A DNA stretch of 60,370 nucleotides, counting the filler, from Hausera hauseri (lineage: Eukaryota), in assembly GCA_046269625.1 (NCBI GenBank). It is 11 parts of 11 records of this genome, joined end to end, with 100 filler letters (N's around TTAATTAATTAA, not from the genome) between each part and the next. Parts side by side here need not be neighbours in the genome. Positions count along the whole stretch, not along the records: positions 19,015 to 28,548 come from JBJURY010346601.1; positions 28,649 to 34,135 come from JBJURY010244292.1; 9 more parts are not named here. One strand, given 5' to 3'. Both the position numbers and the translations under genes were made by a program. The stretch's first letter is position 1. Each line of letters opens with the position of its first letter. Shown piece by piece: positions 5,342 to 48,229 of this stretch. The notes under the pieces are model-generated. The model was not told where the DNA came from. It worked only from the letters and a program-made list of their open reading frames with translations, and did not search any database.

Positions 5342-5544
5342 CACAACATTATAAAATGTATGCAATAAAAATAAGTTCAAATAATTCAGATTGTAAGTTT
5401 TGTGTTTCAGGACGCATAATAAAATCAGATAATAAATACATCTGGAGTGAATGCACACTTTTTACATGTATAAATATAATTTTTATATCGTATCTGGTGC
5501 AACAGCTGCGAATCATATTAGAGAATTGAAATGCGCATTCACAT

Positions 5545-5690
5545 GCTGCGTAACAGCATCAGGCGCAGCATCATCATGCGCAGCAGCGTCAGGCGCAGCA
5601 GTATCAGGCGCAGCAGCAGCAGGCGCAGCAGCATCATGCGCAGAAGTATCAGGCGCAGCAGCATTAGGCCCGGTCACATCAGGCACAGTG
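5545..5690 (+). repeat. Degenerate 15-bp GCA-rich tandem repeat (catcaggcgcagcag), Ala/Ser/Gly-rich if translated
   Basis: Directly visible; lies just upstream of the PolB gene. Confidence 0.8.
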
Positions 5691-5759
5691 GCTCCATCAA
5701 AAAGCCAAAGACAGCGACCAGTTGATGCGGCAGCATGAAAGAGAAAATGCCGTAGATAT

Positions 5760-8170
5760 TTTATTCAGGCAACTGGTCAAACAACCCTCCAAGATATCCT
5801 GTTATACACAGAGGATTTGAGATTCTTCAGGACAACATGGCTGAGCTCAAAACCCTTAAGGTGAATATGAAACTGGAGGCCACATACATCAATGTTGATG
5901 GCGAAGAATCCAATAGGGTCTTCAAGACCAAAAATAGACCCATATTGGAAAATACCAATCTAGCAGAATAGATGCAAGAGGCGCACGAGAAACTGATCCA
6001 TGAAGCTGAGGAGAGCCATGATAAGAAAAGCGGATAAACTCTGGCAACCAGCAAGAGATTGCTTATGTATGTACACAAGTACTCTCCAATACGGGGCAGT
6101 TCATATATTCAGCTTCCGGAATGGATTATAGGGAAAAATGCATGCATTCATGTCTTTAATTATGAAAACAAGTGTTTCATGTATGCCATTCTATCAAAAC
6201 TCGTACGGGATCAACATAATGCTGCATGAGTTTGGCTATATAAAAAAGTGCAGAACAACTATGACTTCCAAAGGATCAAGTTCCCATCATCTATAAATAA
6301 AGTCAAAAAATTCCGACCACTCAACAATATACCAATCAACATCATTGGATTGGATGATGAGGACAAATTCTGTGCCCTGCAAATATGTGATGTTGAATTG
6401 GAAGACCATAGGGATCTGCTCCTACTAGATGATGGGAAAAAGAAACATTATGTTTGGATAAAGAACTTTGAACTCCCAGTAAGATCCAAAATTACGAAAC
6501 ATCATGGACAAACAGAAATATGTAAGCGATGTCTGTCTGATTTCAGTGGTGATTCAGCAGTGAACAAGCTTGCTGAGCACAAAATGTACTGCAACAACAA
6601 TTACTGTATCAGGCCAGAATTTCCCAAGGAGGACTATATTGAATTCAAGGTGTTCGAGAAGCTCAAGGTCCCAATAGTTATCTATTGCGACTTTTAAGCG
6701 ATTCTGCGTCCAGTTCACAGCTGCATTTCCAGCCCTCAACATAGCAGCACAACGGCATACCAATATCATGAACTCTCATCGTATTATATGTATGCTAAAG
6801 GATTGGACAGTGAACCATATCTATTCAGAGGTCCAGGCGCAGCAGCACATTTCATGAAGAGACTTCAAGATATGGCTCATAAGCTTGAAAACATGCTTCA
6901 GCAGCAGAAGGATAATATGAGCATGTCAAGAAAACAAGATGAATGGTGCAAGAAATCAGCATGTTACTTGCGCTCCAAATCATTCACCAAGGAAAATTGG
7001 AAAATCAAGGATCACTGCCATTTTACACGTGCATATCGAGGGGGCGCATACAACAATTGCAATCTTCGCTGCAAAACATGTAAATATGTGCATGTAGTGT
7101 TCCACAATCTCAGTGGCTATGATTCCCATTTCATAGTCCGAGAATTCGGCAACATTGAAGGAAACATTGAGGTGATCCCCAACAGTGAGAAGTATATCAC
7201 ATTTACGAAGCATGTTGGGAAAATCAGGCTTTCAATCATAGACAGCTTTCGTTTCATGTCGCCTTCATTGGACAGTTTAGTGAAGAACTTCCCTGCAGAA
7301 GAACTCAAGGAAACGAAGCAATTCTTCCCCACTGCATTTGACCTCGTCAAGAGGAAAGGTGTTTCCCTATGACTATATAACTTCATTGGAAACACTGGAT
7401 GAAACCTCATTACCGGACAAGAAGGACTTTTAAAATATCCTCTCTGATTGCGATATCAATGATGCGGACTACCAACATGCCCAGAATATCTGGCATGCAT
7501 TCCAATGCCGAACATTAGGGGAATACAGCGACATATACCTCAAGATGGACGTGCTGCTGCTGACAGACGTCTGAGAGTTTCAGGGATGTTACAATGAAGA
7601 GCCATGCTTTGGATCCGGCTCATTTCTTTACGGCTCCAAAGATTAGTTGGGCAGCAGTGCTGCACTATACTGGTATTATGTTGCAAATCATTAAGGATTA
7701 TGATATAATCCTTATGATCGAGAAAGGCATTAGAGGCGGAATATGCCAGGCCATTCACCGGTATTATGAGGCCTATAACAAATACATCATACCTGGATGC
7801 TAACAACTTGTATGGATGGGCAATGAGGGTCTCATTGCCATATGATAACTTCAAATGGGTCGAGAATCCTGAACACATCCCTATATTGGACCTGGATCCC
7901 ATTGGAGATACGGGATACATACTGGAGGTACATATGGAATATCCGACTTCCATCCACACAAGGCATCAACAGCTGCCTTTCCTCCCTGAAAGCAGGCCTC
8001 CGCCCCACGGAAAGCTGAGAAAGCTGCTCTGCCATCTGAGTAAGAGAGAGGTATGTACTCCACTACATCAATCTCCAGCAAGCAGTTAGACATGGACTTC
8101 GTATTACCAAGATCCATAAAGCCCTGCAGTTCAGCCAGTCTATGTGGCTGCAGTCATACATAGATCTCAA
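5760..8170 (+). pseudogene. Protein-primed family B DNA polymerase (Polinton/adintovirus type) with endonuclease VII-like insert; frameshifted and 3'-truncated
   Basis: [103 protein letters not shown]. Confidence 0.95.
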
Positions 8171-9348
8171 TGACGCGCAAAGAATTCCAATGGAAGTTTC
8201 GATTCGAAAAACGAATAGAGCGGAAGTGTATTGTACAGTTATTAGCCCCAGAAAGCGCGTTCGCGAAATACATTATGATACAACAGTAATTAGTAAAGGT
8301 ACATTTCCGAGAGGCCGGGACATCAAACTTGTCCAAGTTGAGTGGGAACAATGTTTATACGGATATATCCTAACTGGATGTCTCATCGATAAGATTGTCG
8401 AATTCTTTGAGATACCCATTTCAAGCATCGCAGGAATGCGTGAAATAGGGACACATCCAATAGTCGCCGAACATACTAAGCGGACATTGCGAGAAAGAGG
8501 TTACTATACGGCAAAGATTATGGATGAATACTTCAAGATAATAGTTGATGTCATGAACAGTAAACATGTTAAAATGAGCAAACTGTTGACCGCAAGCCAG
8601 CGTACTAAATACTTGCGCGACATCTATGTAACTTTAAAATGGGACCATGAATGGACACCTGATAACCGAGAACAAAATTTGCGAAGTTCATCAGAACCAG
8701 AAAGTATAAACAAAATTTATCGAAAACAGTACCATTCATATTCTCCATGTAGAATCGTTAAACCTATAAGACAGGATGATATAAAGATAACCATTAGGAA
8801 ATCCGATCAACCATGTGCCAATATGCCCAGCACCAGTTATGGATCCCACGTCAAACCAATTGCAGAAGTGAAATCTACAATGAAAAAGATAGATGCAATC
8901 GAGACATTTAAAGTACCCAAAATTCCACCGAAAAATCAGAAAGCTGGAACACAAATTTCCTCGATTAAAAGAAAATTATCCCGCTATGATTACTTGTTTA
9001 GGAAGAAAAAAAAGACGGTAAAGTTAGTTACCAATAAAATTGAAGAGACTTGAAAATTTGGAGATAAAAGGAAAAATGCAAACGACGTCTACAAATAATC
9101 AACAGATGAATCGGGCCCTAGAAATAGGAAAAAGGAAATCGATATCGAAATATAAAGATCCAGAAGGCGGGTTAAAAAAATTATTCACAGAAGTAAATGT
9201 ACATAGAAAAAGAAACTGTCAGGAAGATGTGAACTTTGCAACGACTAAAGATTATCCAAAGATGCTAATAACTGCCGAATCTTGCAGTCAAAGAAAATTA
9301 AAGAGGCCATGTTTTCTTCAAGACCACACAAGCAAGAGAAGTTTATGA
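8170..9348 (+). pseudogene. 3' part of the retroelement DEDDh-fold accessory ORF (paralog of 27092-28548) joined to the truncated PolB
   Basis: Close nucleotide and protein match to 27783-28548 ([46 protein letters not shown]). Confidence 0.9.
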
Positions 9349-9553
9349 AAACACCTACATTTGGGAAACCCCTAAAATAGGAAAGTATATCGCATCCATT
9401 TTTCAGTCGAAAAGAAAGGGTAAGTTAGCCGTACCAGTGGACAAACAAATGAANNNNNNNNNNNNNNNNNNNNNNNNNNNNNNNNNNNNNNNNNNNNTTA
9501 ATTAATTAANNNNNNNNNNNNNNNNNNNNNNNNNNNNNNNNNNNNNNNNNNNN

Positions 9554-9759: not shown

Positions 9760-10709
9760 TTCCGGAAGATTTTAAAAACAAATTTCAAATTGAAAATTGA
9801 AAACTTGGATAATTCTAGTTTATTAAAATGCCGGTAATTATTTTGACTATATAGTTTTATGATTAAGGGTTAATTTGCCGAGTAAATTTATGAAACGGTA
9901 CTTATGTAGTATCATTCTCATTCAGAAATCAAAAATCACTGAAAAAAATCTTAAATCGAATTTCAAAGTTGACAATGGAATACTTGTGAATATGCATTCA
10001 GATACGAACTTTATCAATAAATAATTATTCATTGAAACAGTATGTAGCATATATAGTTGTCCATTGGATGAATACGACATGTAGCATTAATCCGGTATAT
10101 TAATCGAATGTTTATTTAATTTTAATTATTTATATAATACATAAAATAAAGAATCAGATAAAATCAAATGAAAGAAGTATCTAATTGATAGTAGGTGATT
10201 TTATTTAGACTATTCAGTTACAATAATTTACAAGGGAACTATCATTGTAGCGACCAATTTTCAACCAGGAATATGTTTATGTTGGAAATGTGAATATGTT
10301 TTATATGCTATTTCTATCATTTGCAATTTTAGAAATAGCGATATTACTTGAGGAAAACAATTAAAAACTCACCATTCTGCGAAGTGATTTCTGAAATAAT
10401 GAAGACTATCTTTATCGATTTTTAAAAATTCAAAATTTGAATTTATTGATTTTTAAGTTGAAAGTTTAGAAGTGTTAAAAATTAATAAGAAAAATTGCAG
10501 TTGCCTCGACAGATGTGGCTTCTTAACTGATCGGTTCACGTGTGGTGTCCTCTTTTTACCTATCTCCACTCTCCATTTACTGCTCCACCTTACAGGTATA
10601 TGCCTGCTCACTATTATGACCTTTTGTCAATCCCACTTCGGTGGAGCACAATCAGGCGATCGGTCTTTTTGCTGGGTTTCGCCCTGCTACATCCAGCTTT
10701 TCTCATCAC

Positions 10710-11260
10710 AACTCTTGGACCTGTCAAAAACTCTCATGTATGAATTCCATTACAATGTAATGAAATTACGATATCAGCATCAGATACAATTATTGTACAT
10801 AAACACAAATTCCTTTATCTATCATACACAGACTGATGACATATTCGTAGATTTTATGGATTTGGCTTCTTACTTTGATACTTCCGATTACCAAAGAGAT
10901 CACATGAATTATTCATAGCAAACAAGAAATTATTGGGCAAATTGAAGGATAAAGTCAGTAGCAAAATAATAAGAAAATTTTTTGGATTGCGATCTAAAAT
11001 GTATGCTGTGGATGTAGAAGGACATGTTAAAAAACGACCAAAAGGCGTACTGACGGCAACACATGCCAATCATATAACATTTGAAGATTACGTGGATTGC
11101 CTAAGGAACGAAACGATGCTCTTTTCATCTATGAAGTCCATCCGATTTCAACGGCATTTTGACACAACAGTTGACCAGAACAAGAAATCCCTCAATCCTT
11201 TTGTGACAGGCGACTAATTTTACATAACGGCACATGTACGCAAGCCCATGAACACTGTGA
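10710..11260 (+). pseudogene. Protein-primed PolB C-terminal fragment
   Basis: LDLSKTLMYEFHYN, LLYINTNSFIY (degenerate YxDTDS), FDTSDY, GKLKDK, FFGLRSKMYA, KKSLNPF. Confidence 0.92.
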
Positions 11261-19014: not shown

Positions 19015-19610
19015 AATGATAGAAATAATAATCGAAACGGTCATGGCGATAAGAATTGGAATGATAATTGTGGAAGACATGATAGACGATTTAATGGAAA
19101 TAGAAATTATGAAAATAGGAATAGTAATAACGACTACAGGAATAGCCGAAATAATAACTACGCTAGAAATCAAAATACGAATAAGTAGAATACGGATAAA
19201 GGTTTTAACTATGGGAATCGTCACGAGGATAATCGAAATAATAACAATCGGCAAAATGTAGATATTACGCAAGGGTTGTCGAACCAGGTCAATAGAAGCG
19301 CAAATAGGTCCAAGTCACCTGTGAATGAAGACGATCGGTAAAGAGTCGGCAGAAATGAAAATTTAGTTTGTTTTACCTGCAGTATAGAAGAACACATTGC
19401 ACGGTCATGTCCAAACCCGCGTAGCGTTTCATTTACTGAACCTAACAAGACTAGTATGATTAAAGTGAAGAAAAACTTGGAAGCAAAGTATGGTGATCGT
19501 GGAGACACGAGTATTATTATCGACATACAAGATCTGCGGATATTTCTAGATGCTCAGCCTGCGTCATATAACTCACAGAATTTGATGGCTAAAAATACGC
19601 AAATAAATTA
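19015..19610 (+). pseudogene. gag: Gag C-terminal region: Asn/Arg-rich tract and CCHC zinc knuckle
   Basis: The frame from 19015 reads NDRNNNRNGHG... then CFTCSIEEHIARSC (19369-19410, CX2CX4HX4C), with two internal stops. It is not in the ORF track. Confidence 0.75.
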
Positions 19611-19622
19611 AGGCTATTAGAA

Positions 19623-22600
19623 GTGCATCATGGGTTAGCAGAACCAAAAACTGAATATGAGTATGCGATAGCACCCAAGCGAATTGATATGACATGGAAA
19701 AAGAGTGTTCCGACGATCGATAGAATAGCAGATAAACCAGGAACTTCGACGGAAATCGACTTAGATGCAGAGCCTGAGTTTGCGGTTGGAAAAGTAGACA
19801 TTACCGAAGATAAGGTAACAAAAAAGGAATTTATGGAGCTATTAATACTTAAAATTATTAAAAATAGAGGCCGTAACCCTTCATTGAGAACGAACCGTAA
19901 AAGTCGCTCACTTTCGCAAATACCTAAAGAGAAAATAGAAGAAACGAAAGATACGAACATCGCTGTAGAAAGCGACGTACAGCCTAGCTTAAATACACCA
20001 GAAATTGGTCCATTTACACCTATCGAGGTAAATGAATCTGTAGGGTCGGTTAACGATATTGACGAGATCTGCCCACTTTCCACTAGTGAGGAAGAAATCG
20101 AAAATATTGATGATTTTTATCCACAAAATGGAAAATCCGACGTTCGTGGGAAACGCCAATGAATTAAAGTAAATGAGAATTTGATGCCACGATCCAGGAA
20201 CACTACAGTGGAATTTAGAAAGACTTAAGAAGATTAGCGAACAAGTATATATCCGGTAAAGAGCAACCACTGGCTGCGAGGTTATATAAAAGTTTAAAAT
20301 TATGCATTGAAGGAAAGCTCGATGAAGCAATCGACTTAGGACAACCTGAAGATGTACCAACCGGAACGTTAATAAAAAGGAAACGTGAATTAGAATCATG
20401 GATTAAAAGTGAAGTCGAATTCTCGGAAGGATGGAGTAAAAGCGAAAATAGTGTTGATTTGAAAGTAGTCAAGGCTCAGACGTTATTATCTACACTAGAA
20501 ACTAATCCCAAAATTAAGACAGTAGTCCGTAATTTAGAACGCATGATGGATGATATTCAATGTGCAATGATTAATCGACTTAGGGAAAAACCTGTTAGCA
20601 ATGAAAGTGATATCGATTTAGAAATATTAGGCATAGACCCAGTAGACATTACTCCTTTAATGGAAGTGATAAAAATTGCCTTCATTGTGCCTAGGCAATA
20701 TACAAATTTAGAGTATCGTATTAAAATTAAGAAAGAAAAAAGATCACAAATTGTTAGCTTTAGAAATCGTATTATGTTCATGTATAATGAATAAACCAAA
20801 TATGTAATAAAAGCTTGTATCATAGAATTCGACGAATATAAGGATGAATTCCATTATATCAGCCGAATTATGAATTTCATAAAAGGTCCAAATGATGTAT
20901 TAAGGGATGCTTATAAAATGCTAGACAAGGCCATATTGGCAAAACCTGAAATGGCGAATCAACTGCATGAATGGTCCGAATTAGTAGCGAGAGTAAGTAA
21001 ATTAGTAGAAGACCGTAAGACAGAATTTCCAGAAAGCGAGCCTTCTATAAAGAAACAATTAGAAGAAAGTGAAAGGAACTTAGATACAATCCCAGCGGAA
21101 ATAGATATACGGACTCAATTCGAAGCATTACGACAATTGGAAGAGATATATAAAATGATCGAAGTAACAAACTTCACAGAAAAGCAGAATATGACTTGCA
21201 ATTTTCACCCAAGTTTACGGAATGTCCGCCTAGAGGAAATCCAACATTTAACAGCTAAATCTACCGACGAAATTTCCATCCAGGATATCGAAACTTTAGA
21301 TATTTGCACAGAACGTAAAACGGTTACAGAGGAAGCAATGAGATTCATACATAAACCACAGAAATGTATGACCGGAACAAATCAGAACTGTCATACCGAG
21401 TTGACAAAAATAAGAAATGACCCTCAGCTTAGTTTTGAAGAAGTTAAGTTCGTAAAGAAATTGTTCTATGTAATAGATCCCGACTCAAAAATTGTTAATG
21501 AGATGTACGAGTTAGCTTTTCTTTTAGTAGAAATGACATAAATTAGTGATGAGAAAATGAGACAATTGATGCCTCAAATACGACAGGCCGAAGAAACGTG
21601 CAGTAAAACCAAACAAAGAGCGACAATGTTAGACGAATTAATCAGAGCTCAAATTTATAGAAACAAATATGGTTTTACCGAGTCCGAAATCAAAAATAAG
21701 CGTGAATTTGTATAAATATGGAAAAGAAATGTAATTATGGAACTAACTGTTTATCACCAGAAGGGACTCATCCATCCTAATGAATTAGGTGAACTATTGA
21801 ATATGATTCAGTATGCCTATGGAAACGGAATGGGTTTCCGAACTACACAGATGAATGAAATACAACCAAGATTGAAAGAAATAAGAGAAAACGTGTGCAG
21901 ACTCAACACAATGTTGACAGACTGTGGGCTTCCAGACGTTGGAAATGAACCGGAATGGGACGCGTACTTCGATGCAATAACGGCCGAGAATCCTGTGACT
22001 CCGGTACAGCTAAATGAATTAGAAACGTGTCCCCAGGACAGTAGATTCAATGTGGAGATGCTGTTGGATCCAGCGCTAACTGAAAGGTATTTAATTGAAC
22101 TAATTATTGTGAGCACTGCCGAAAGTAAATTAAGACAACTCATTCCGACTTTGACTAAATTATCTAGTGAAAACACAATTTATAGCGCGGTGCCAAAACT
22201 TTTAATACGGAAATACGCTAAGATCGTGAGAGCTAAACCCGAAGTAACGATGAAAGTAAAAATATCATGCGAGTAAATGGATGAAAAAAAGTGAGTTAAC
22301 CACGTATTCATGCGTGAGAAATGTAAGAGAACGATTAATAAACAATGGTGGAACGAAAGAACTAAAGTATAGATTTTACTTCAGAGGTAGAATACTGGAT
22401 GATCTAGAACAGTCAATAGACATCGGGATCACCCCCAACGAAACAAATCGTATCGTGGTAATAGTATCCAATGAACAGAATAAAGAAGAAGCCACTCGTA
22501 AGGCCAAGACAAAACAATGTGTAGGACAAATGATGGGAGCCCGGGATGATGCAGTGTATTTTGAATATTTACAAACGGATGAAGACAAGGAACAATACGA

Positions 22601-23160
22601 CAAGAATTTAGTAACCCTGAGTGAAACAATAACCAATGTGCCAAGACAAAAACATTCAGTCGGCAGACCTAAGAAAACAAGAGAAGAAGCAGACTATAAA
22701 TGGAGAATTGATTAGAGAATTGATACAGATGTCGATTCCTACCTTCAGCACGGACAATGAAGAATTGAGTGAATTAATGAAGAATTTAATACGAATTGTA
22801 AATTATTCAAGCCTCCGAGGTGATACATTAGACGATAAAGAGAGGGCGATATTCAATGCAGAGAGGATGATGAGAAGTTCAAGTTTTAAATTATCAAAAA
22901 GTAACTTAACTGATGAATCAGTGATCGAAAAGATCATGGTGGAACACACCACTAAAGAATTAAGAAAAGTAGTATTGTACTGAGCTATCAAAATAAAACC
23001 CGGTTGAGAGAATGAAATTAATAGAGCTACCAGCTTAGCACGAAGAGCGGCAAGAAAGCTACCCTGCAAAGTAAATTGATAGAGACTATTCGATAAAGAA
23101 GAAGACAAACGGTCCAGAAATAGCAATCGATTCGAAGATATGCTCGTAATCTGACAATGA
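19623..23160 (+). pseudogene. Large decayed ORF(s): acidic region, helical repeats, ubiquitin-like domain (~22249-22465), AT-hook-like GRPKK (~22662)
   Basis: MKVKIS..ELTTYSCVRNVRERL...KYRFYFRGRILDDLEQSIDIGITPNETNRIVV follows the ubiquitin pattern. A homologous region is at 33222-34118. Confidence 0.6.
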
Positions 23161-23209
23161 CGCATAATATTAACCGGAAAAGCGAATCTAATTGATTAAT
23201 TAGCTTACT

Positions 23210-25616
23210 TTGATGATTCTAATAAAGCATATAAGTGCTGCTACCGTCTACGATTGCGATAAGTTTAAGCTAGGACAAAAATATTCTCTAATGGATTTAG
23301 AAGTATGTGAGGACGCCAGACCATACAAATTGGAAACAAGGAAGAAAAGTTACTTCCTATATCAACAGCAAGAATTGATATCGTTGGATGGAATGGAATG
23401 TACGTTTAGACAGTCCCGTAGCATTTTCCACTGTGGATTAATGCACGGACATTCTTCAATAATCAGGCCAATGACTCCTCTAATTCCGATGAATTTGGAA
23501 CGCCAGCATTGTAAGCAGGCCAGGGAAACCGGAAGAGTAAAAGGGGATAGCATGGAACTAGAGATGTAACCAGGGAAGATAATCAGAGCATATAAAGTAG
23601 TGGTTGGAAGGTTAGACATGCATAACGGACATTGTAATGGAGCAGAATACGACACTGGAAAGTGGTTAGAATCAAATGTATTGGTCGTAGATTTCTATGA
23701 ATCGGAGATGTACAAAAAGTAATGTTCCATAGTGTCACCAAATTATATACCGAGAATCAGAAATGCCATTTACAAGATGGAACCTGTGCCTTCAGAAGTT
23801 CTGTTATAATATAGGAACCTCCCTTGGGAAGAAACTGTAATTTTACCAAAATCAAGGAATTGAAATTTAACGAAACCACCGGAAAACGATATGTAGATAA
23901 ATCCGATACCAACTCAAGGACACGCGAGGATGTAGCAGAACACCCTACACCTACTATATTGATCGCCGACCAGCATGGACTAAAATTTATTAAGAAAGAA
24001 ATGATCTCTCGTTGCAAAGTGGTAATGTTCGCTACAAATTATGAAGCATTTTTCGTTACAGAGATTAATATAAATGCGAAAACTTACGAGCTAGAAACAC
24101 AGGACATTCGGATTGAATATTACTTGAAAAACCGAGGCGATTACTTTTATTACAAAGGACAAGTTGGAATAACCGAATTATATCACAGAATGATAATGAA
24201 TGATTGTAAATTGGATATGAAAATCATGAGAACAAAATTAGCTCTTATCTGTGCTAATCCTGAGTTAGCCTCTCCAATAATTCCTATGAGAAAAGGAATT
24301 TTCGGTCGAGTTACCGGCGAAGTCCTATTGACTTATGAATGTAAGAAAAGAGACGTACCAATCAACATTGAAAAAAAACATTGCATGTAGGAACTCCCCA
24401 TTATTTACCAGAATACTCCGCATTTAGCCACGCCGCTTACTAGAGTGTTATTAGACAATGCAACTGAACCAAAAAATTTTAAAGACTGTAAAGCAAGTTT
24501 AAGAGAACCGATTTTTAGACGTAGCGAAACAGATAGGGTTAGTTTGCCTAATGGAGGTATTACTGTCGCTCCAAATAAATTAACAAAAACAAATCTCGCA
24601 AAAGGAATTACCGACGATAAGTCTCAAGACACCTCGTCAAAAGGCATATATATGCCTAAGGAAATTGAAGCCTTCAGACAATTTCTCGCTTTTCCACGAC
24701 AGCGGACACACGAATTAAATCGAGCCATGGCCTCTGTAGTAGATGATATTCAACATCAAGCTTAGTGGGAATCATTGCTTGGCGTAAATCATTACCAACG
24801 AGTAACCACAGAAATACTCTACAAAATTTTGGGAAGATTTTTAATTTTTGGACAAGCCGCACCTGGATTCTTAGCGATATATTTTCTAATACAAATGATT
24901 AAGGCCGTCATCTAATCAGTAATAATATGGGATTTTCGTGTAAAATACTGACTGCAATCATAACACCTTTGGCAAATTCTTAAAAGCATATGAAGAGAAT
25001 AGACGGAAATCGGACATAGACCGTCATGTCGGTTACTATAATCGTAAACGAAAAGGAAAACCTATGTTTCTGTACAAGCAAAAATTCACAATACCTAATA
25101 CGCGAAGAAATAATTCAGATAATGACGAGCCTAAGGGAAGAGAAGTACTTCCGAGAACAGATAGACACAAGACGTATTCTGTCATAAAGCACCATTGCCT
25201 GTGCTACCCCTACTGCTCCAGTCTATAAAGACTGTGACAAACGATCAATGAGCTCATATCAGACAGAAATCTATAAAAGAACAATTAGTTTAGAAGACCA
25301 CTACGACGGAACGAAACGTTATGGAGTCCTACGGAAAATGTGTTATCGACAGCCCGTGGATGACCCCAGAATACTGTATCCTCCGAGAGAACCTCGGAAT
25401 ATAGAGACTAGATCGCCTGTCTGGGAAAATCCAAGGTTAGAAACCTTCCGGAATATAGAACCACACACAAACAATCGAAAACCATTAATTAGTATACATG
25501 AAACTGAAGAATTGAAGATCGAAAATAATGAATTATATCCAAACGGAGAATTAAGAATATTATCTGAAAACATAGTATTCTCCCCAGACATTCGAATTAA
25601 CGGACATTCGAATTAG
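23210..25616 (+). pseudogene. env: Chuvirus/herpes gB-like (class III) envelope glycoprotein, plus tail and linker leading toward the deleted protease
   Basis: Signal-like segment, then VYDC...YSLMDLEVC, SIFHCG, RVTGEVLLTYECKK, C..ELPIIY, GIY, and TM region KILGRFLIFGQAAPGFLAIYFLIQMIKAVI. Confidence 0.85.
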
Positions 25617-25786
25617 CACTATCATTAATTGCTTCTTACATTCCAAGGACACAAACTCAATGGTGAGACGACGAAACTATGCTAGGAGATGTATATGGAA
25701 TTCGGAAGAGGGAATAAAAGCCGAAAGTTATTAAAAAGGGAAAAGAAACCAACGGCCGAAGAGATCCAGAAACGAAAAGATACTAT

Positions 25787-26989
25787 TTGTTACAATCAAT
25801 GAAGGTTCATTACTTTTCGCCCGACTCTGAGTGTGTTGGATTTAAAACTTGGAGACCGCATCACGATTTCGCAAGATTTCAAGTTGTACTATGCAATGTG
25901 ACAACAAAAGAAGTAAAAAATTGCGATTTTGAACCCGGAGATTATACCCAGTGTTGCGACATAGATTTTGGATACATTTACATCCTTATTTATCGACTAT
26001 ACTTACCAGACTCATCAGAAGTCTATATCGAAGTAAACCCACAACTTCAGTTGGTCATTCCCACTTGTCCTAGACGATTCGAAGTGAAACCCGAAGAAAT
26101 GCAACAATTCACTGACTCAAATATAAGGCTATTATATGAAAACATGAAAAGGATCTCAGTAAATCAAGGAAAACAATGCATCCAAGTAGATGCTCGAAAA
26201 GGATTAACTTTTAGTCAAGAAATTATTATTGTTTTCGAAGCAGTAAACTGAAAAACTCCAAACATAAAATACTGTTCTGTTCATGCTGGTGTGCAACACC
26301 CATGTAAACCAAGAATTAAAATAAAGTTTGATCTATATGAAGTACGACCGAATGAACCGAGCAAACATTTGTGAACCTATTACCTGAAGAATAGAAAATG
26401 GAAGATTCAAATAGAAACGACAACCGAAAAGCCAACTACTTGAGTTTGTGCCATTACGAGACCCGTTATATCAAACAATGTGCCTAAAAGAGATTTAGAA
26501 AGTATACCTATTAAATATTCAACACATCGATTTAGAATTGTGTTCTTTGTAGAAGAAAAACTAAATTACAATATACACATAAGCTGCCGAACAACGCGTA
26601 ATAATCAAATTGTAACACTACTTAAATACACTTACCAGACAGAATGCAATTTGTTAAAATCACAATCTGATTACATAGTACAAGTATATGCAGCGAATAA
26701 ACAAAACCGAACAATTATATTGCCTACCTTAGACGAAATTCGTGCAGGATCGCATATATACGAAAACATAGACGAGGAAATCACAACTCCAATCACAACA
26801 CAGGCACCAATGGGATTAACCACTTTACCGATCGTATCGATTGTCGTACTATCGACGTTTGTTCTCATTATATTAATTGCGATTTTTCGGTTAGTTGTCA
26901 AAAATTGTCATTCTAAACGTCCTAAAACTACAGAATGGAAACTAGGGAAATTGGAAACCCCTATTGATCAGTATGATAAAATAACCTGA
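25787..26989 (+). pseudogene. Type I membrane protein with fibronectin-III-like ectodomain
   Basis: ORFs 25787 and 26480 share a frame. LKSQSDYIVQVYAAN is an FN3-like strand motif, followed by a Thr-rich stalk, TM IVSIVVLSTFVLIILIAIF and a short basic tail. Confidence 0.6.
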
Positions 26990-27062
26990 CAACTACAGAG
27001 CAGATTATTCTATCATCTGACAAAGAATTTGTTTCATTTTAAGACCATCCTTTGTTGTAAGA

Positions 27063-27094
27063 TTAACCCTTACTGTTTATTTTTTAGACTGATG
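27063..27094 (+). promoter_or_regulatory. Candidate 3' splice acceptor just before the ATG of the accessory ORF
   Basis: ttaac (branch-like), pyrimidine tract, then tttttag (AG at 27086-27087); ATG at 27092. Confidence 0.4.
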
Positions 27095-28548
27095 AGTAAA
27101 GGGAAAGTTATGAAAACGGATACCGGACAGCCTAGGATCGACGGACCGCGATCTATCCTAGAGCGAGAACAATGTAGTATCGTGAAATAGTTAAAACGCC
27201 GACTTAGTATCGACGAGTTCCTGCAGAATTATGCTACCGTTTTCCTTCCCACTTCCAAATCGATATATCGAGAAATTCAGAACGAATTGCATGAGAAAAC
27301 CTTCGTGAAGTATGATCAAACCAGTAAAATTCCTAACAATTTAAAGGGTACAACGGAAGAAAATATGATTGTTTACCTTTACGCCATGAGAAAAGACAAG
27401 GTTGCCCGAGCATACTCACTGAAACAGATGATCACGTACGAATTACATCAGAATATTTATATCTACCTGGAAGGTGGTTAGATATACTATCGGTTCAAAG
27501 ACCAAGAATCGAACACAAACAACGGAACACAATACAGATTTAGTACCCTTAGCTTACGGAGCGAAGATTTACAGCATTATGAACTAGAATTCCGAGTAGC
27601 CGCCCTTCCCTTGAATATAATGTTCGAGGTAACGTACGACGATTACCCCTATATCAAACTGCCACCCTTGAAATTTCATCAGCAGCCGTCAAGCAAGGAC
27701 TTGGACGCATTCTTACAATCTTATAGACTAGTGCAAGACGCCAGAAATACGAGAATCATAGCAATCAATTGCGGAGAAGAAGATGACGCGAAAAGAATTC
27801 CAATGGAAGTTTCAATTCGAGAAACGAACGGAACGGAAGTATAATGTACGATTATTAGCCAGAGAAAACTCGTTCTTGAGACATACTACGATACGACAGC
27901 AATTCGCAAGGAAACACTCTCGAAAGGTAGAGACATCAAACTTGTCCAAGTTGAGTTGGAACAATGTTTACACGGATATATCCTAGTTGGATATAGCATC
28001 GATAAGATTGTCGAACTCTTGGAGATACAGATTTCAAGCATCGTAAGAATGCGGGAAATAGGGACACTTCCAATAGTTGCCGAACAAACTAAGCTGACAT
28101 TGCGAAAAAGAGGTTACTCTATGCCAAAGGTTATGGATGAATACTTCAAGATAATGGTTGATGGTATGAACAGTAAACATGTTAAAATTAACAAATTGTT
28201 GACCGAAAGCCAGCGTACTTAATACTTGCGTGACATTTATGTAACTTTAAAATGGGACCATGAATGGATACCTGATAAACCAGAACAAAATTTGCGAAGT
28301 TCCTCGGAACCAGAAAGTATAAACAAAAGTTATCGAAAACAGTACCGTCAATATTCCCCATGTAGAATCGTTGAACCTATAGGACAGGATGATATAAAGA
28401 TAACCATTAGGAAATCCGATCAACCATGTGTCAATATGCCCAACACCAGTTATGGTTCCCACGTCAAACCAATTCCAGAAATGAACTGTACAATAGACGC
28501 AATAGATACATTTAAAATGCCCCAAATTTCAGTGAAAAAGCAGAAAGC
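27092..28548 (+). pseudogene. Accessory ORF with a DEDDh (REX4/ISG20-like) exonuclease-fold domain
   Basis: ORFs 27287, 27611, 27956 and 28226 are all in frame with ATG 27092. IIAINCG..PMEVSIRETNGTEV..T.ISQR...YDTT.I...VQVELEQCLHGYILVGYSI...MREI follows the REX4 pattern. Confidence 0.6.
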
Positions 28549-28739
28549 NNNNNNNNNNNNNNNNNNNNNNNNNNNNNNNNNNNNNNNNNNNNTTAATTAA
28601 TTAANNNNNNNNNNNNNNNNNNNNNNNNNNNNNNNNNNNNNNNNNNNNCTGGCGATTCAAACAAAGAAGAAGCTGGGTCAGAATTGATATGCGTAATCTA
28701 ACGAACCCGTTAGATACGGACAACCTCAGCTGACGATTA

Positions 28740-30170
28740 ATGTCAGGGATTGCAGCATACTCAACCCTAATTAAAAAGATAACCAAACAACAGCGGGTTA
28801 CCTTGAACTCCAGAGATAATAGTAGCGAAACCACAACGATTACCTCCATAAGTTGTCTGATAACCGTTGTGTTGTGTTTAAGCATAGTGATAAATGACGT
28901 ATTGACTTTCATTTTTGCAGCCTCAGCAGAAACTTTCCATCAGATTCAGACAATCAGTCGATCCAAACAATGGTACAGTAATGTGAAAAACCATATAATA
29001 AATGCCAATTAATCCAACCAATACCATGTGTTTCACAAAGACTATATGATCAGCCTTAATTACCCCCAGACTCAGAATATTCCAAATAATTTGAAAAGAT
29101 ATAGTATGGCTAACCAATCCCTCGGCGTAATGCAGATTACCAAGGCCACCTCATTTCTTTTAACCGACATAATAATTCTGCTAGACCGATTCCATTCCAT
29201 GAACCTGTATGGTATTGTTTACCAACTCCAAGTAAAAACGACAGACAGAAAAACATCTTTTAGAGGAGATTTAATCAATTTTGATCCGGAGCATGGTCTT
29301 GCTTTTGACCACTCATTTCTTAAAAACAATATATGCAAAGTACGTTCCTGCACTAATGGCGTAATACTGGCATTAGAAATAATCAAAAACGAAAAGTTTT
29401 ACTCAAGCCTTCTAGAAGGAAGATGTTTTAACCTTCCAGAGCTGGATTACGTCAAATATAAAAACATTCCTTTCCGGAGATTGGATAAAATTACAGATAA
29501 AGATATGGTCATAGCAGCCGTCAATTTGGCCTATGACCAGTGGAATCAGCTTCAACCTATTGAAGCCTTAGTTATGGCCCTGAATGGAGACACCCTACTT
29601 TATGGAATAATTACTCCGAGGCAGCGTATTAATAACTTTGATACGCATATAACAGGCCTCACCGAATCTAACATAAACAACCAAATGGATCCAATGGATT
29701 TTTACCGAAAAGCGGCCGAAGGTATAACTGACAAGATTGTAATCGGAGCCGACGTGATTGAAATGGTTATAAACCATTTCAAGTGTCCAATCGGACGGAT
29801 AGCTGGAGTTAGCGATATTTTATATCACGAGAATGTTATCCGTTGGTATCAATTAGCAACCAACACCTATAAAGAGTTAGCTCGGAGGTTTTATGATACG
29901 AAGGGCTTCTCTCTTCAAAGCACTGCCCTAGCTCAGCGTTATTAGTCGATGTACAATCAAATGAAATGGACAGACGAGTACATTACTCAGAGTTTGACCT
30001 CCGATACGGTGCGAACAGCACCAAAGGCGTCTCAATGTGAAAGGAAGCGAGAAGTCCAGTTGGACGAAACAGTCATATTGGACGATGAAATCTACAAACC
30101 CGAGGCAATTCGACATAAATCCAGAACAACGGACAAGTATATCCACATGCCTTTAGTGCTCGATCAATGA
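28740..30170 (+). pseudogene. Divergent homolog of the DEDDh-fold accessory ORF
   Basis: One frame with two stops. YPQTQNIPNNLK matches YDQTSKIPNNLK. MALNGDTLLYGIITPRQRINNFDTHITGLTESNI, KIVIG and VSDI follow the DEDDh fold. Confidence 0.65.
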
Positions 30171-30680
30171 TAAATTCGGGGCAATTTCTTTCAACCCCTG
30201 TCGAATTGTTAAAGACTTTGAATAGACCTCCGGTAATGCTTGACTTTTTTTTCCGGGTACTACTATCTCTGATTGTGGGGGTATTATAATATCTTTTGTC
30301 AGTGAGACCTTTTCTCTGCATCGATCTTCATCAAATGTCTTTAACTGACTTGTTCTTACGTCTATGTATGCGTTTTCTAATTGGTTTAATACATCACACC
30401 CAATTAAGATTTCATTAGTCAAATTGTCGGCTATGCTTATAGTGCGTTGCAGAGTTTGTTTGCCGATTTTAATTTTTGCGTCCAGAACCATCTTGATTTC
30501 TTCTTCTGTACCGAACGCTCCTACGTTTATTAATGTAGTAGTCAGTCTTCATAACTTCCTTTTCAACTCTTTGGGTAATTGACTTCTTCCCATTATTGTT
30601 GTTGTAGATCCAGTGTCTAATAAAGCCGTCATAGGGTATCCATTTACCTCTATTTCTATTTCTGGCCTTATAGGTGATTG
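30153..30680 (-). pseudogene. pol: Retropepsin aspartic protease and start of the following spacer; pol truncated
   Basis: IRPEIEIEVNGYPMTALLDTGSTTTI, ILIGCDVL, IIIPPQSEIVV. Confidence 0.9.
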
Positions 30681-32917
30681 TTCGCGTTTTTTATCATCAG
30701 TTCTGCACGTCGACTCACGCTGATAAGGTCTTACATCTTCCTCAAAATTTTGTTGCATCTGGTGTACTTGATGCATTGGGTATAATCCTGTATGTACCAC
30801 ATATCGTGGAGCTGAAGGATTTACTAAAAGTTGCTCGTTATATAGTTGCCTATGATATTTATCTACGGGATCTAGATGGGGTAAATCCATCACGAGCTTA
30901 TGCCTATATTTAGGCTTTCGTGTCTTCAACACTAGTTGTTTAATGCCAGGTACTTGTTTGTATTTCGTTTTTATCTTCACTTGATCATAGTTGGTATTAT
31001 CATTGTCAGGTATACTATACAGAGATTCTTTCGTGTCTCTCTTTTGTAATGTCTTTTTCTTCCATCGTGTATCATGCTTTGCTAGAAAACAGCTTGCTAC
31101 GACCGGTATTACAGCTATTAAGATCTTCCAGGGGCATTCTACTGCTGCGTGTATCCCATATGCTTTACCTAATGCCGTAAATACTGTCCGAATGGAGCTA
31201 ATAATAAAATATATAGCTAGAAAATCAGAAGCTGCTTGTCCGCAATATAGGAACTTTCCCCATATCTTTTCCATAACGTTTTTTGTTACCTTCTTTAGGT
31301 AATCATTACCTATAGGGTTCTCCCATTGTGGTGATCCTTCACCGTCTCACATTACTCTCCGTGTTAGGTCGGTTGTTACTCGTTGTCTTTGTTGCTGGAA
31401 CAACAGCATCCGTCGATAGTCGTCTAAATTTTGTTGGGTATAATTCCTCCCTGTGATATTCTTGTTAATGGTTCGAACTTCTGATTCCTTTGTAAGTTAA
31501 TCAAACTCAATGTCTCCGGTTTGGACACTGGTTCTCTTTTCGGCATTCTTATCGATTTATCGTTATCAATCTTGAACATCGGTGGCATATTAAAAGTACA
31601 GTTGTATAATGGAGTGGGCTTTACATTAATATCTAGCAATATTCTCGTCACTGGCATAACATATCGGGCTTCTGAGTGATAAACGACAGGTAGTTCCATT
31701 GCACATTTGTCTGTTGGTCTAATTGATACTTCCACCTTTTTACATTCTATTGTTATCAACACGTCGCCCATCACTCTTCCAATAACTCCGTCGCCGAAGG
31801 GCAATACTGGCGCTACCATATCTGGGTTTGTTATCACCAATGCCATTTTACTACGAATTATTTCATAGTTCTGCTTACATTCGTTCATTATTATTTCCCG
31901 ATATAAACCCGTAATTTCTTTCCTTACGTAATTAATCAGAAAATCGATCTTATTATTGAAATATTGTGTTAACTTGATATCTTTTTTATCTATTTTAGTT
32001 TTTGCTCCGAGTATTTCTTTCCTCGATAAGAAAATACCTTTATAGTTGGTTCTCGATATTTCTTCACTGCACTTGTTTACTATTCCGGTGATTTTGAATC
32101 GCGTCATTTCTTCTGGGTTTTCTGAATATACAATTGTGGCCACTTCCGTCATCTTGACTTTCTTTGTTCCTTCTTTATATGTCGCTGTCTCTTTTTCCGC
32201 TATTTTTTCTACCGTTTTGTTAAACTTCCCTTTCTTTAACAGTGTCAACTGGCATTTACTTGCTAGAGTCTCCTATGTCATTTTTGACTCTTCTGTATCA
32301 CATTCGCCATTATCGTATTCACAGTCACTCAGTCGTCATTAACTTTGTTTGCAAATTGAATAATCCTTCATATTCTTTTAATTGTATCTTATAATCTTCT
32401 ATAGCCACTGTTCTTGGTGCAATGGTGCCTCCGACATCATAATCCACTCCTTTACAGGTGCCTTCCATCGTTTTATCTATCCTTCCTGCCCTAAAAATCC
32501 TTGTGTACTTTATTCTGTTCCTTACTGTCGGTATGTGTGCGTTTTGTATAGTTATGATGCCGATCTTAGAAGCATCCTGACATTACGCTCGTGATATTAT
32601 TATTGGCTCAAAACGTGTTGTAGGCTCAATTATGGCCGAGTTTCCTGAATAGTAAATTAAACGGAAAAAAACGATCTTTTCACATAACATTCCCTAATTT
32701 TCGTTTTTATGAATTCAGATTCTTGGTACACCAAATGTGTAAGACCACTAGTAGTTGTTAACTGTTCTGGATCAGCTTCTGGGCATTTTTCTAAGTCAAC
32801 TGGAGAATACTTTTGTCCTTTACTGGGTTTAGAACAATCATGCGCCACTATACCTACGGCTTTCTGCATCAGCAATGATGTTATTCATAGAATTTTAAGA
32901 ATCTCCATTACCGACAT
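30681..32917 (-). pseudogene. env: Chuvirus/gB-like envelope glycoprotein copy 2; TM and tail are in the same ORF as the protease
   Basis: MSVMEILKIL.ITSLLMQKAVGIVAHDC, RVMGDVLITIECKKVEV, CAMELPVVY, KIWGKFLYCGQAASDFLAIYFII. ORF 30549-31274 runs from the TM to DTGS without a stop. Confidence 0.87.
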
Positions 32918-38553: not shown

Positions 38554-41480
38554 ACGCGGTAGTTTTTAATCGTTTGATTTCGAAGATTTTAGAAATTTTG
38601 TCAAATAACTCACTCGTAAAATTTCTTCCTCTATCGATTAATATGTGATCGGGCGGTCTATATCTGCAGATGATTTTCCTCACTACTGCTTCTGCTAGAG
38701 TTTCCACCTTTTGATCAATTAGTGCGATTAATTCCACAAAGTGTGTTAAACGATCTACAAATGTCAAAATATATTTATTATTTTTATGAGTTGTAGGTAA
38801 AGGTCCTACTATATCCATATACATAGCTTGCATAGGTCTGTCTGGTACGTCGATCGGTTTTAATTCTGCTATATAGTTTTTTACTTTTCTTTGTTTTGTT
38901 GCACAGACTTCACAAGCGTCCGCCCAATTTTTTACATCGATATAAACGCTTGGCCAGTAGTACTTATTCAATATTCTTTCTAACGTTTTCTTTCACGACA
39001 TATGTCTAGCTAAATGTGAATCGCGTTCAGTCATTAATACTTCCGTTCGTAATCCCTTTGGAATAACTACCAGTTTCCGTCCCTTCCGTTCATAAGATAA
39101 TATATTATCTTGATTCGATGTATATTTGTGCCCGTGTCTCTGTACGTGTTTCTTTAGCTGACGTCCTTTCGGTATTTCATCTTGCTCGGCAAATTTGACT
39201 ATTTGTTGGACAACTTTATCTTTAGCTTGTTCTGAAGCAACCTTGATCGTCTTATTTGGTGTTAAGGTTTGTTGTCACTCGACTAATTCTTGAAGCTGAG
39301 CCTTCTTCATGGTCGTATTTGTGCTTGTTTTTGTTTTAAGTCTTGATAAAGCGTTTGCGCCTACACGTTTACTTCCGGGTTTATATTGAAGTTTGATATT
39401 GTATCGCGAAATTTCCTCAATCCATCGATTTAGTCTACATGTCGGATTATTAACCAAGCCCTTTAGCGTGGTAACAGCCTTATGGTCGGTAGCTATAATA
39501 ATTTTCTGCCCATAAACGTAAATGTTGAAATGCCTTAAGGCTTCTTTTACAGCTAGCGTTTCTAGTTCAGTTACTGAATAATTTTTCTCGGCCTTCTTGA
39601 ACGCCCATCCTCCATATGCAATCGGGTGCTGCAATTCTTCGTCTTCTCGTTTTTGGGCCAATTCGTAACCAATTCCTTCTTTACCAGCCTCTGTTTTAAT
39701 TTTGAATGGTAAGTTGAAATCGGGGTATTTTAACACTGGTTCACCTGTTAGAATTTTCTTCATTTCATCGAACGCCTTCTGTTCTATATCGGTCCATTTC
39801 CATTTGATAACTTTTTTCAATAGCCGATATAATGGCCCATTTATTTTCGAGTTGTCTGGTAAGTAAGTGGCATAATACCCACATAAGCCTAACCAATGCC
39901 TTAGTTCTTTCTGATTCTGGGGTTCCATACAATCCAATATTTTGCTTAATAAAGATTTATCTGGTTTTGACCCTCCTTCTCCGACTATATGTCCCAGATA
40001 AGATACAGCGTTTTGTGCCCATTTACATTTTTTCGCATATAGTTTCAACTCTGCCTGTTCCAACCGCATGAGAGTGTCTTTGATGTCCTTTAGGTGTTCC
40101 TCTTTTGTTCTTGATGCTATCATTACATCGTCTAAATACGCGAACGCATGATCGAGTCCCATTAGCATTTTATTCATCATTCTTGTGAAAATAGCTGGGC
40201 CGGTTGTTATACCAAACGGCATGACGTTAAATTCGTAAACTCCGTCGTGTGTCTTGAATGCCGTTTTATAACGGTCATCCTCTTCAATTTCTACCTACCA
40301 ATATACTGATTGCAAATTTAATGTGGTAAACCACTTTGCTTCTGATAATCAGTCTAAAACTTCTTTTACTGACCGTAGTGGAAACGAGTCTTTCATCATC
40401 TGCGTGTTCAGAGCTCTGTAATCTATACAGAAGCGATGTTTTGTGGTACCCTTTTTCTTGACTATGAGTAGTAGTGAGTACGAAGACAGATAGCTTGGTC
40501 GTATTATATCACCCTTTAACATATGTTCAACCTCTGTAGTTATTTCGGGCCTTAATAAATGGAGCGATGGGTACCATTTAGGCATCTTTTGCTTTTCCAA
40601 GTCAATTTCGTCATTAGAGCCAGGTTTCTCTGCCTATATCTTCTTCATTTTTGGCGATAATCGAATTATATTTGCATAATAATTTGTAAAATTGACAATA
40701 TACTTCTGGTGAAAATTTTTTCTCAACATAAGATGGAAACTCGGCACATTTATAAGGTTTTTCGTCGATTGTTATTCCCGATACTTTGTAAGTATGACCC
40801 AGTGTAGTGTTGACATACAACTTTAAGGAAGTTGGTGCATTATTAACTAATCTGACTGGTACTCTTCCTGTCGTTACTCTTGTTAAAATGTTACTGAGTA
40901 TAATGTTTGAGTAAACGTCTTCTTGTGGCTCAAAATATGCTGGCTGATCGTTTTCTTCTCGGATCTGGACATAAATTAGGATTTCGGTTCTGGGTGGAAT
41001 AGTTTCATCGAACGGGATCTACACTTCTCCTAGTTTCCTTTCTTTCATTGTTTTAATTCCTTTCACTGGTCCGAGTTCGAGTAGTTTTTCATTCTGTAAG
41101 TTTATTACAGTATTGGGAAACTGTTTCAGTATATCGCAACCTAACACTACATCGCCGGTTAGTTGATCCATTATAGTAAACTCGTGTTGTCGCGTTTGAC
41201 CTATTAATTGGACTAGGGGGCTCCATTTAAATGTCAGTTTGGATTCTTGCCCGAAGGCTCCTATGCTGCTTGAATCCGATGGCGATGCTGGCTGCAGTTG
41301 TTTTCGTAACGTCGGCGGTATTGATTCTAATTTTACAAACGATTTCTCTGATCCGGTGTCGATTAAGGCATAGACTTCCCAAGCTTCGATGTAATTTTCG
41401 TGAAGGGTCTCCCTTCCATAACTGTTCCGTAACAACTTGACACGTCTTTTGGTCGTTTAATTGAAGAAATTTTATGTCCG
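38554..41480 (-). pseudogene. pol: Ty3/Gypsy pol (protease - RT - RNase H - integrase)
   Basis: ALIDTGS, RFCIDYRALN, MPFGITTGPAIF, AYLDD, PIAYG...AEKNYSVTELE, TDHK, YYWP..CEVC, MDIVGPLP, DRGRNFTS. Confidence 0.96.
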
Positions 41481-43439
41481 CTTATCGTTATTTCTGGTGA
41501 TGAAATGATGTTCTCGGTCAACTGTTTCAGTTCTTCGTTAGGGTAAAAGTCGTTGATTGCTATGCGACCTGCATTGTTTCTAATTAATGGTTCTTGTATT
41601 ATTTGGTTTTGGTGCGATTTTATTCCTTATGTTCCCCAAACTGTTGATCTTGTCTCTATATTACGAGCTATTCTTGGCGAATACAATATCCTATGGTTAT
41701 CTTCCGCTCGTCGTTGATTAGTAATCTGCATTTTCTTCAATACTCCGTATTGTTTTGTTCCTTCATAAGGGTCCTCATAGCTAAAAGGTCTTAGACAGAA
41801 ATCCCATTTGTGTAACACCATAGATGTTCTTTCACAATCTTCGTATATTGGGGCCATTGGCAGCATGATGGGCAAGGGTACCTTGACTACTGAATACATT
41901 TTATGTCTATTTTATTTTAGGTTTGTTTCTCCTGCCTTAGGCTCGTCATCATCGGAGTCATTTCTTCGTGTTACTAATTTCTTAATTTTACGTTTTAATA
42001 GAAATGTGGGTCTTGCTAGTCGTTTATAATTATAATAGCCGACTAAGCTTTCAACGTCATTTTTCCATCGGTTTTTTTCGCATGCTTTAAGCATTTTGCC
42101 GAACGGTGTCATGATTGTGGTTAAGATTTTTCATGGAAATCCTGTTAACGTGAATATTTCGTAGCCATTTATAACCGCTGGGATTACCGCTTTTACTAGT
42201 TGTTCCAAGAAATAGATGGCTAAAAATCCAGATGCGGCTTGTCCAAAAATTAAAAATCTTCCCCATATTTTGTAGAGTATTTCGGTAGTTACCCGTTGGT
42301 AATGGTTTGCACCCAACAGGGATTCACATTTAGCCTGGTAGCGGGTGTCACCTACTACTGATGGCATAGCTCGGTTTAATTCGTGTGTTCGCTGCCGAGG
42401 AAAAGCGAGAAATTGCTGAAAGGCTTCGATTTCTTTGGGCCTGTAAATACCTTTTTGGGATGTATCTTGAAACTTGTCATCCGCAATTCCTTTTGCTAAA
42501 TCAGTTCCAGTTAGTTTTCTGGGAATGATAGTGATACCTCCATTGGGTAAGCTAATCCATTCCGTAAGCTATTCCATTCCGTTGCAGCTCTTTATAATTG
42601 TGGGCTGAGTCGCATTATCCAACAACACTCTGGTGAGGGGCATAGCTAGACGTGGAGTATTCTGGTAAATTACAGGGAGTTCATGCATACATCGTTTCTC
42701 TTCGACGTTGATTGGCACATCTCTTTTCTCGCATTCATATGTGAGTAGAACCTCGCCAGTAATTCGATAAAAAATTCCTTCTCTCATAGAAATAATTGGT
42801 GAGGCTAACTCAGGATTCGCATAAATAAGAGATAATTTTGTCCCCATAATTTCCGTATCCAGTTGGCAATCGTTAGTTATTATTTTGTGGTATAGTTCGG
42901 CTATTCTGACTTGTCCTTTATAACAGAAATAATCGTATCGGTTTTTCAGATAATCTTCGATTCGAATGTCTTGCGTTTATCTCAGTTTCTGCGACGAAGA
43001 AGGCTTTATAGTTAGTGGTGAACATTACTACTTCACAACATGAAATGATTTCTTTTTTTATGAATTTCAATCCGCGTTGATCAGAGATTAATATCGTAGG
43101 TGTATCATGCTCTGATACGTTTTCACGTGCTCTTGAACTGATGTCGGATTTGTTTACGTATTGTTTCCCGGCAGCTTCATTAAATTTTAATTCCTTAATC
43201 TTAATAAAATTACAGCCTTTTCCAGCAGGCGGTTCCCATATGACGACAGAACTTCTAAAGGCACAGGTTTAATCCTGTATATGACATTTTTGGTTCTCGG
43301 TATATAGTTTAGTGACGCTATGGAACATCACTTTCTGGATTTGCATTTTCGATTCGTAAAAGTCTACTACCACTATGTTTGCTTCCAGTCATTTTCCAGT
43401 GTCGTATTCTGCTCCACTGCAATGCCCTTTATTCATATC
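41481..43439 (-). pseudogene. env: Chuvirus/gB-like envelope copy 3 (5'-truncated by contig end) with tail and linker, directly upstream of pol
   Basis: ANPELASPII, RITGEVLLTYECEKRDVP, KIWGRFLIFGQAASGFLAIYFL. ORFs 42847, 42367, 42112 and 41899 share one frame. Confidence 0.88.
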
Positions 43440-48000: not shown

Positions 48001-48229
48001 ATCACACTTTGTACAGCAGTGCGATCACCAGTAAAATCGGCTGCTTCAAGGATGAAAGTGAAGGTCGTGTCCGGTATCGGGAATGGATATTCCTACGCTC
48101 AAAGTGCTACAGTCGTCTGACGGACTGTGGAAAGTAAATGCGGGAAAAACGAGTCCAGCTGAGACAGGCAGAAATCGGCCACGGTGATTATCGCGGTATA
48201 TATGAAGCAGCAACAGCAGCGGCAGCAGT

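Follow-up and report, generated by a model that had tools for sequence, protein, structure and literature searches.

A probable retroelement accessory gene of Hausera hauseri with a predicted barrel and DEDDh exonuclease fold and repeated loss of catalytic residues

Here, we report a gene present in three copies in a 60,370-nt stretch of DNA from Hausera hauseri (the window), whose product is, with high confidence, predicted to combine an N-terminal double-stranded beta-helix (DSBH) barrel with a DEDDh exonuclease fold of the REX4/ISG20 type. Taken as a whole, the best explanation of our results is a retroelement accessory gene in which a dead exonuclease would serve as an RNA binder, an account to which we give about even chances. 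No window copy is an intact gene or able to yield a full protein.

Eleven unplaced contigs make up the window, with a 100-nt linker, identical each time, at each of the ten joins. Copy A forms the end of contig S5, copy B the start of S6, and copy C lies within S2. Since the assembly linker N44-TTAATTAATTAA-N44 (28549..28648) separates the contigs of A and B, these two copies are neither tandem nor genome neighbours; a tandem pair was thereby ruled out, the three copies lying on three contigs. The regions of A and of B are both repeated at high copy: 20,817 contigs of run X1 fell on the first and 5,290 on the second, with all 30 bins covered (depths that do not equal copy numbers), and the differences were mostly transitions. 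Other repeats in the window are a 68-bp satellite with at least 62 copies, which makes up the contig at 34236-38453, and a GCGCAGCAG-rich 15-bp tandem repeat at 5518-5697. A weak Pfam match to Bunya_nucleocap at 478-831 on the minus strand (E 0.007, under the cut-off) is probably due to chance.

All three copies are on the plus strand. Copy A (27092..28548) has both domains, is pseudogenised by in-frame stops at 27188, 27479, 27842 and 28220, and is truncated by the contig end. Its DSBH, placed at approximately 27300..27640 by family alignment to the modelled domain of copy B, includes IPNNLK at 27329, and its pseudo-DEDDh domain, placed by alignments and HMM, spans 27746..28267, with A-N-S-L-R in the catalytic columns. 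Copy B (28921..30173) shows the same architecture in a distant subfamily, with stops at 29010 and 29943 and its longest open stretch at 29013-29942; the DSBH (cupin/AlkB-like; model residues ~10-125) lies at 29040..29387 and the pseudo-DEDDh domain at 29502..29978, with catalytic columns A-N-D-L-L. Copy C (8170..9453) belongs to the subfamily of A (86% DNA identity by blastn), but is 5'-truncated, without DSBH and motif I, and is frameshifted after 9053. The identity between A and B is 14% at the protein level, and BLASTP alone gave no significant link between them (best E 0.029). Among open-frame database proteins, P0005 and P0006 are 38-40% identical to A, and P0004 is 47-53% identical to B.

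Copy C starts past motif I, at its junction (8170) with a Polinton-like pPolB fragment (6375..8171, plus strand; PF03175; 83% to contig S4). In S4 the polymerase runs on beyond the point where the junction cuts pPolB. Because pPolB is cut mid-gene, we consider the junction a rearrangement, and rejected copy C as a real pPolB-nuclease fusion gene. Decayed Polinton-like pPolB regions occur on contigs S2, S3, S4 and S9 (6230-8171, 14818-17420, 46356-48158 and 10457-11217), which have neighbouring ORFs in common beside them.

Searches with the individual copies gave no significant match in Pfam for any of the three and nothing significant in the PDB. A profile made only of motif-intact database relatives (31 in all), with no window sequence included, scored 50.9 bits for A, 61.7 for B and 30.5 for C, against best scores of 12.9, 5.7 and 7.3 among 300 shuffles each (295 scored for B) and scores below 0 for the reversed sequences; none of the other window frames (66 frames in all) matched it at E<0.9. 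The family search returned 73 matches among 1.84 billion representatives. A word-based homolog search found one relative for B, none for A and four for the alignment A4, and no relatives were found in viral_contigs or prokaryote genomes. Of 14 loci from a metagenome scan, 13 belong to the family; L014, which matches bacterial DnaQ-like sequence, was removed ahead of the locus counts.

The best PDB matches of the family profile were ISG20L2 (E 5e-31), ISG20 (9e-19) and SDN1, and Pfam RNase_T (PF00929) was matched by 20 of 53 members. A two-domain fold was predicted with pLDDT 88.3 and pTM 0.85 (a single-sequence AlphaFold model, at pLDDT 34.5, was unusable). The predicted nuclease domain has the DnaQ/RNase H-like fold of the DEDDh class, with ISG20 ranked first in both Foldseek and VIA, as expected from the initial annotation, which had recognised a REX4/ISG20 pattern in three retroelement-encoded copies. 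The ESM Atlas returned RNase_T at 0.89, which we treat as a lead only, and gave no usable match for the N-domain.

While fold and element association stood, the residue assignment of the initial annotation, in which Asn replaced the first Asp, did not. The motifs are where it had placed them (IIAINCG at 27755-27775 in A and IAAVNLA at 29511-29531 in B), and ILVG-type motifs are also in place (ILVG at 27980 in A, IVIG at 29736 in B, ILTG at 8367 in C). Its register was off by two: two MAFFT alignments and the HMM alignment concordantly place IAIN and AAVN against the family LDAE, so that the changes are D>A (27761, 29517) and E>N (27767, 29523), rather than D>N. Likewise, the "RD/SD" element corresponds to the family's GIRD motif and not to motif III. 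The H..D of motif III is missing in A, B and C, although its alignment is less sure in A and C owing to an insertion. Neither A nor B thus has the DEDDh catalytic set (D-E in motif I, D in motif II, H..D in motif III), and C is without motif I. The window copies are without four or five of the five catalytic residues, the motif II Asp of copy B (29751) being the only one kept, and judged by sequence the residue set of a 3'-5' exonuclease appears to be absent from them.

The alteration extends well beyond the window. In a 69-row family alignment, D-E-D-H-D is intact in 33 rows, a further 21 rows are complete yet altered and 15 are incomplete; 16 of the 21 altered rows retain none of the five catalytic residues. 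P24, N25, R203 and D226 are nonetheless found in every altered row covering those positions, and the PN, PR, D226 and GxRD positions are still kept by altered rows. Nineteen database relatives with altered sites are open frames of 353-870 aa, and the A-x-N form of motif I is common to the open-frame relatives of A (P0005, P0006) and of B (P0004). The idea of a retained pseudo-nuclease accordingly holds at the level of the family, and is not supported for the window copies as functional genes. Basicity differs little between the two forms, with a median net charge of +2 for dead domains and +1 for intact ones.

Altered rows conserve D226, R203 and the GxRD Asp well, which could also mean that the domain is still an enzyme whose active site has switched; such a switch has been published as a hypothesis for Maelstrom (PMC2628886). 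Altered rows, however, gain no replacement His, Cys or acidic set, and the residues conserved in them are also conserved in intact rows, which makes this reading highly improbable.

Next to the intact forms, the altered state appears to have arisen more than once. A tree of the nuclease domain (58 of 76 rows, 18 gapped rows being excluded) requires three changes. In it, a single clade of seven host-like rows (100/99) sits amid motif-intact rows, which suggests that the intact state is ancestral. A tree of the N-domain (46 of 76 rows, 30 left out), which excludes the active site and is hence independent of it, requires six changes (bootstrap 5-7), at least three of them forced by strong branches. 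The losses of A and B group with 88/77 support in the nuclease-domain tree and fall in an open polytomy in the N-domain tree. Altered rows sit on long branches in both trees, so that deep groupings are unsure.

The comparison of dN/dS among copies proposed by the initial annotation gave 0.45 for A vs C over 160 nuclease codons, with a 95% confidence interval (0.26-0.79) that excludes 1; the tail of the same pair gave 0.83. For comparison, values were 0.10-0.11 for env and 0.25 for pPolB. The A vs C estimate fits selection in the lineage followed by decay of the copies, and would be compatible with relaxed selection too. The motif-intact relatives are, as estimated from their codons, under purifying selection: dN/dS was 0.04-0.15 in five of six pairs, the sixth being saturated. 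One could argue from these low values, and from the 33 intact rows, that the active exonuclease is the useful form and that the altered ones are passengers under relaxed selection on the way to loss, as their long branches and the pseudogene state of all window copies might indicate. We find this very unlikely, given that the 19 altered database proteins are open, that pairs 38-53% identical carry the same altered motif (A with P0005 and P0006, B with P0004), and that the interval for A vs C excludes 1 in the nuclease part.

The sequence context makes it most probable that the gene is linked to a retroelement, and the attribution in the initial annotation is borne out by gag, gB-type env and retroviral protease homology on the same contigs. 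On the plus strand of S5 the order is CCHC, a long unknown frame, env, protease start, a membrane-protein gene and copy A. The gag-type CCHC zinc knuckle (19342..19608) matches PF00098 with E 6e-4 and 20.3 bits, against a cut-off of 20.8, and the broken chuvirus-type (gB-like) env (23204..25225; PF24664) is 71% identical in DNA to the env of contig S8. Between them, coding sequence of about 3.4 kb (19593-22980), likewise broken, has no significant Pfam match. A broken type I membrane-protein gene (25613..26989) lies directly 5' of A and starts where S8 pol homology ends, at the protease start. Beside B, env (PF24664) and retroviral protease (PF00077) occupy 30153..32884 on the minus strand, and the S6 pol frame overlaps the 3' end of B at 30153 in convergent orientation; B is thus antisense, and A sense, to the neighbouring element. 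The related element S8 (38554..43439, minus strand) has env 5' of PR-RT-RNase H-IN of Ty3/gypsy type (Pfam; RT best match Ty3, E 1.6e-57). A second, distant gypsy RT-RNase H-integrase, ~31% identical to S8, was seen at 58174-60368.

The pol frame stops at or just past the protease in three lineages (25613, 30153 and metagenome locus L004 at 3-3547), and the nuclease gene then follows with no RT/IN between. In A and L004 a membrane-protein gene intervenes; L004 has a retroviral protease-membrane ORF directly upstream of the nuclease gene. This arrangement could reflect a stable RT-less element class or separate deletions. On none of the contigs, which were too short for this, do both LTRs and RT/IN accompany the gene. 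Splice-acceptor-like sites are found just 5' of the ATG of A (27062..27087, plus strand; a branch-like sequence, a pyrimidine run and AG) and 5' of copy B (28902..28920, plus strand), from which we infer a putative spliced subgenomic RNA.

An end signal of ~45 nt is conserved in six of the 13 loci of the family (L001 2731, L007 2787, L008 2829, L010 3191, L011 1110, L012 5559), among them each of the five that extend 660 nt or further past the gene; TGT comes next, after which the sequences diverge. The signal may mark the start of a 3' LTR. It lies ~470-900 nt 3' of the gene (~40 nt in the deleted L011), and every relative beside which it was seen keeps motifs I and II; 0.014 occurrences are expected in shuffles, for a pattern drawn post hoc from these same loci. 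In the window, no LTR-start-like motif rose above chance.

Type I or unrecognised membrane-protein genes stand upstream of the nuclease gene in the contig of A (25613-26989), in L012 (1-1512) and in L004 (3-1679), and may encode receptor-like decoys. By eye, two of the three have what we presume to be an FN3-like stretch; the one in the A contig has a weak FN3-type Pfam match (NDNF, E 0.12) and no match among PDB sequences. We detected no significant similarity among the three (best E 0.18 for the A contig vs L012). Nor is the tail of the A-contig gene supported as a homologue of the bases 5' of B, since 689 of 2000 shuffles scored as high. Short coiled-coil ORFs also precede the nuclease gene: two in L012 (1773-3058, duplicated), after its type I membrane gene, and one in L013 (588-1166).

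It is very unlikely that membrane-protein and nuclease genes form a cassette from another mobile element or from the host, nested near gypsy remnants. Copy C does adjoin a pPolB fragment, which could point to a Polinton, A and B differ in orientation relative to pol, and pol stops near the protease in both contigs. Against this, that pPolB is cut mid-gene beside a copy without its own 5' half, three lineages (A, B and L004) adjoin a retroviral protease region, the gene has no introns and occurs in many copies, and the end motif recurs in six of 13 loci.

Structure searches with the N-domain matched cupins and ALKBH6; in BFVD the list was topped by plant-virus replicases, which contain AlkB-type domains, and also included 2OG-Fe(II) proteins. 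The ALKBH6 alignment is longer (125 residues vs ~90-110 for cupins), but cupins score as high or higher than AlkB-type matches. Since the DSBH is common to cupins and AlkB, the match is not specific to AlkB/2OG-Fe(II), and the predicted AlkB similarity is at the level of the fold only. Among 54 complete rows no HxD/E..H metal triad is conserved in the N-domain, in which one His is conserved in 93% of intact and 65% of altered rows and is Tyr in B. No 2OG-Fe(II) Pfam match was found among 53 members, and an HHalign comparison of the family with just one AlkB sequence, from E. coli, a weak test, gave a probability of 0.07%.

Given that the cutting residues are missing, that many relatives keep them and that others repeatedly lost them, the dead form would plausibly bind RNA; that it acts as an RNA-binding counter-defence protein is, on sequence grounds, a tentative proposal with somewhat less than even chances. 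An ancestral element would have captured a host exonuclease of the REX4/ISG20L2 type and fused it to a metal-free barrel, with the accessory gene expressed from spliced subgenomic RNA. Several lineages would then have lost catalysis without losing the fold or positions like PR, D226 and GxRD. The dead form may clamp RNA 3' ends and so protect the element's RNA against trimming and decay by the host, or it may sequester small RNAs; either way it would help the element to evade silencing.

Dead nuclease and barrel could instead make a protein-binding scaffold, which in the A/C subfamily a RING would turn into a ubiquitinating adaptor for a host defence or RNA-decay factor. In P0005, the closest full-length relative of A and C, with 38% identity to A, the C-terminal end carries a C3HC4 RING finger (residues 747-790), and the frameshifted tail of copy C tracks P0005 to about residue 667, where the contig ends (scores exceeded by 1/1000 and 0/1000 shuffles in two frames). 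Several of the close cupin matches, such as CENP-C, are moreover non-catalytic dimerisation modules. We consider the scaffold unlikely, though worth keeping in mind: only one of 53 scanned members has a RING, none is present in the window, and the B-type P0004 ends at 447 aa without one. No more probable in our view is a broader possibility, a double pseudo-enzyme (dead AlkB-like barrel plus dead exonuclease) made several times independently from a captured REX4-type nuclease within a widespread clade of enveloped invertebrate retroelements, whose RING-bearing A/C form would be a counter-defence protein that grips RNA ends or RNA-bound silencing factors and directs them to degradation. Among the accessory proteins of invertebrate endogenous retroviruses, few have a known function. 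Here, active-looking and repeatedly inactivated versions of one two-domain protein occur as natural pairs, which would allow a direct test of whether retroelements encode RNA-end protectors or silencing antagonists.

The arenavirus nucleoprotein (NP) contains a catalytically intact DEDDh exonuclease domain. It resembles the window family as a virus-borne DEDDh fold linked to immune evasion, and ranked 17 in the ESM Atlas (score 0.85); the analogy drawn in the initial annotation falls short in that the window copies are not intact. The title of one paper gives the nuclease activity only a minor part in interferon antagonism (PMC9815661). Maelstrom, its other analogy, is a host piRNA factor with a DnaQ-H-derived domain that is without DEDHD in most lineages and intact in some relatives, and bears an EHHCHC signature (PMC2628886); that signature is absent from the window family, with nothing like it conserved and no conserved Cys in the conservation table. 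AlkB-type 2OG-Fe(II) domains of plant RNA viruses have the DSBH fold in common with the family, which is without their conserved HxD..H triad.

Contigs S5, S6 and S8 show the same env-before-pol order as HSV/gB-type GAG-ENV-POL errantiviruses, in which a chuvirus-like gB env lies upstream of a Ty3/gypsy pol (Chary and Hayashi, PMC13524379). The term "exonuclease" is absent from the text and seven supplements of that paper in the form available, which describe no such accessory gene, and the available part of PMC13172572 has nothing on a DSBH-DEDDh gene. Nor was one described in the literature searched, a scope that most subscription journals, Repbase and bioRxiv supplements fall outside.

Host REX4, ISG20, ISG20L2 and SDN1 exonucleases are the best sequence-profile and structure matches to the family. 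The window copies differ from them in lacking four or five of five catalytic residues, in their N-terminal barrel and long tail, and in being repetitive and mobile. DnaQ-like ORFs in LTR elements are already known from bdelloid rotifers (also in PMC6338049), while the DEDDh form with a DSBH was not found described in the sources consulted. Bdelloid Juno/Vesta LTR retrotransposons and Terminons carry ORF3, a DEDDy DnaQ-like 3'-5' exonuclease, for which the authors mention RNA 3'-end processing, silencing and an analogy to Maelstrom/EXD1 (Rodriguez et al. 2017, PMC5408684). The likeness is an extra ORF on Ty3/gypsy elements with a DnaQ-like exonuclease, whose function is reportedly untested there. 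ORF3 is RNase D-like DEDDy, keeps its catalytic residues and occurs in env-less elements (PMC5408684). The window family is not of this class, since intact relatives have the H..D motif III and the top matches are DEDDh; it is REX4/ISG20-like, fused to a DSBH, found beside env-carrying elements, and has repeatedly lost catalysis.
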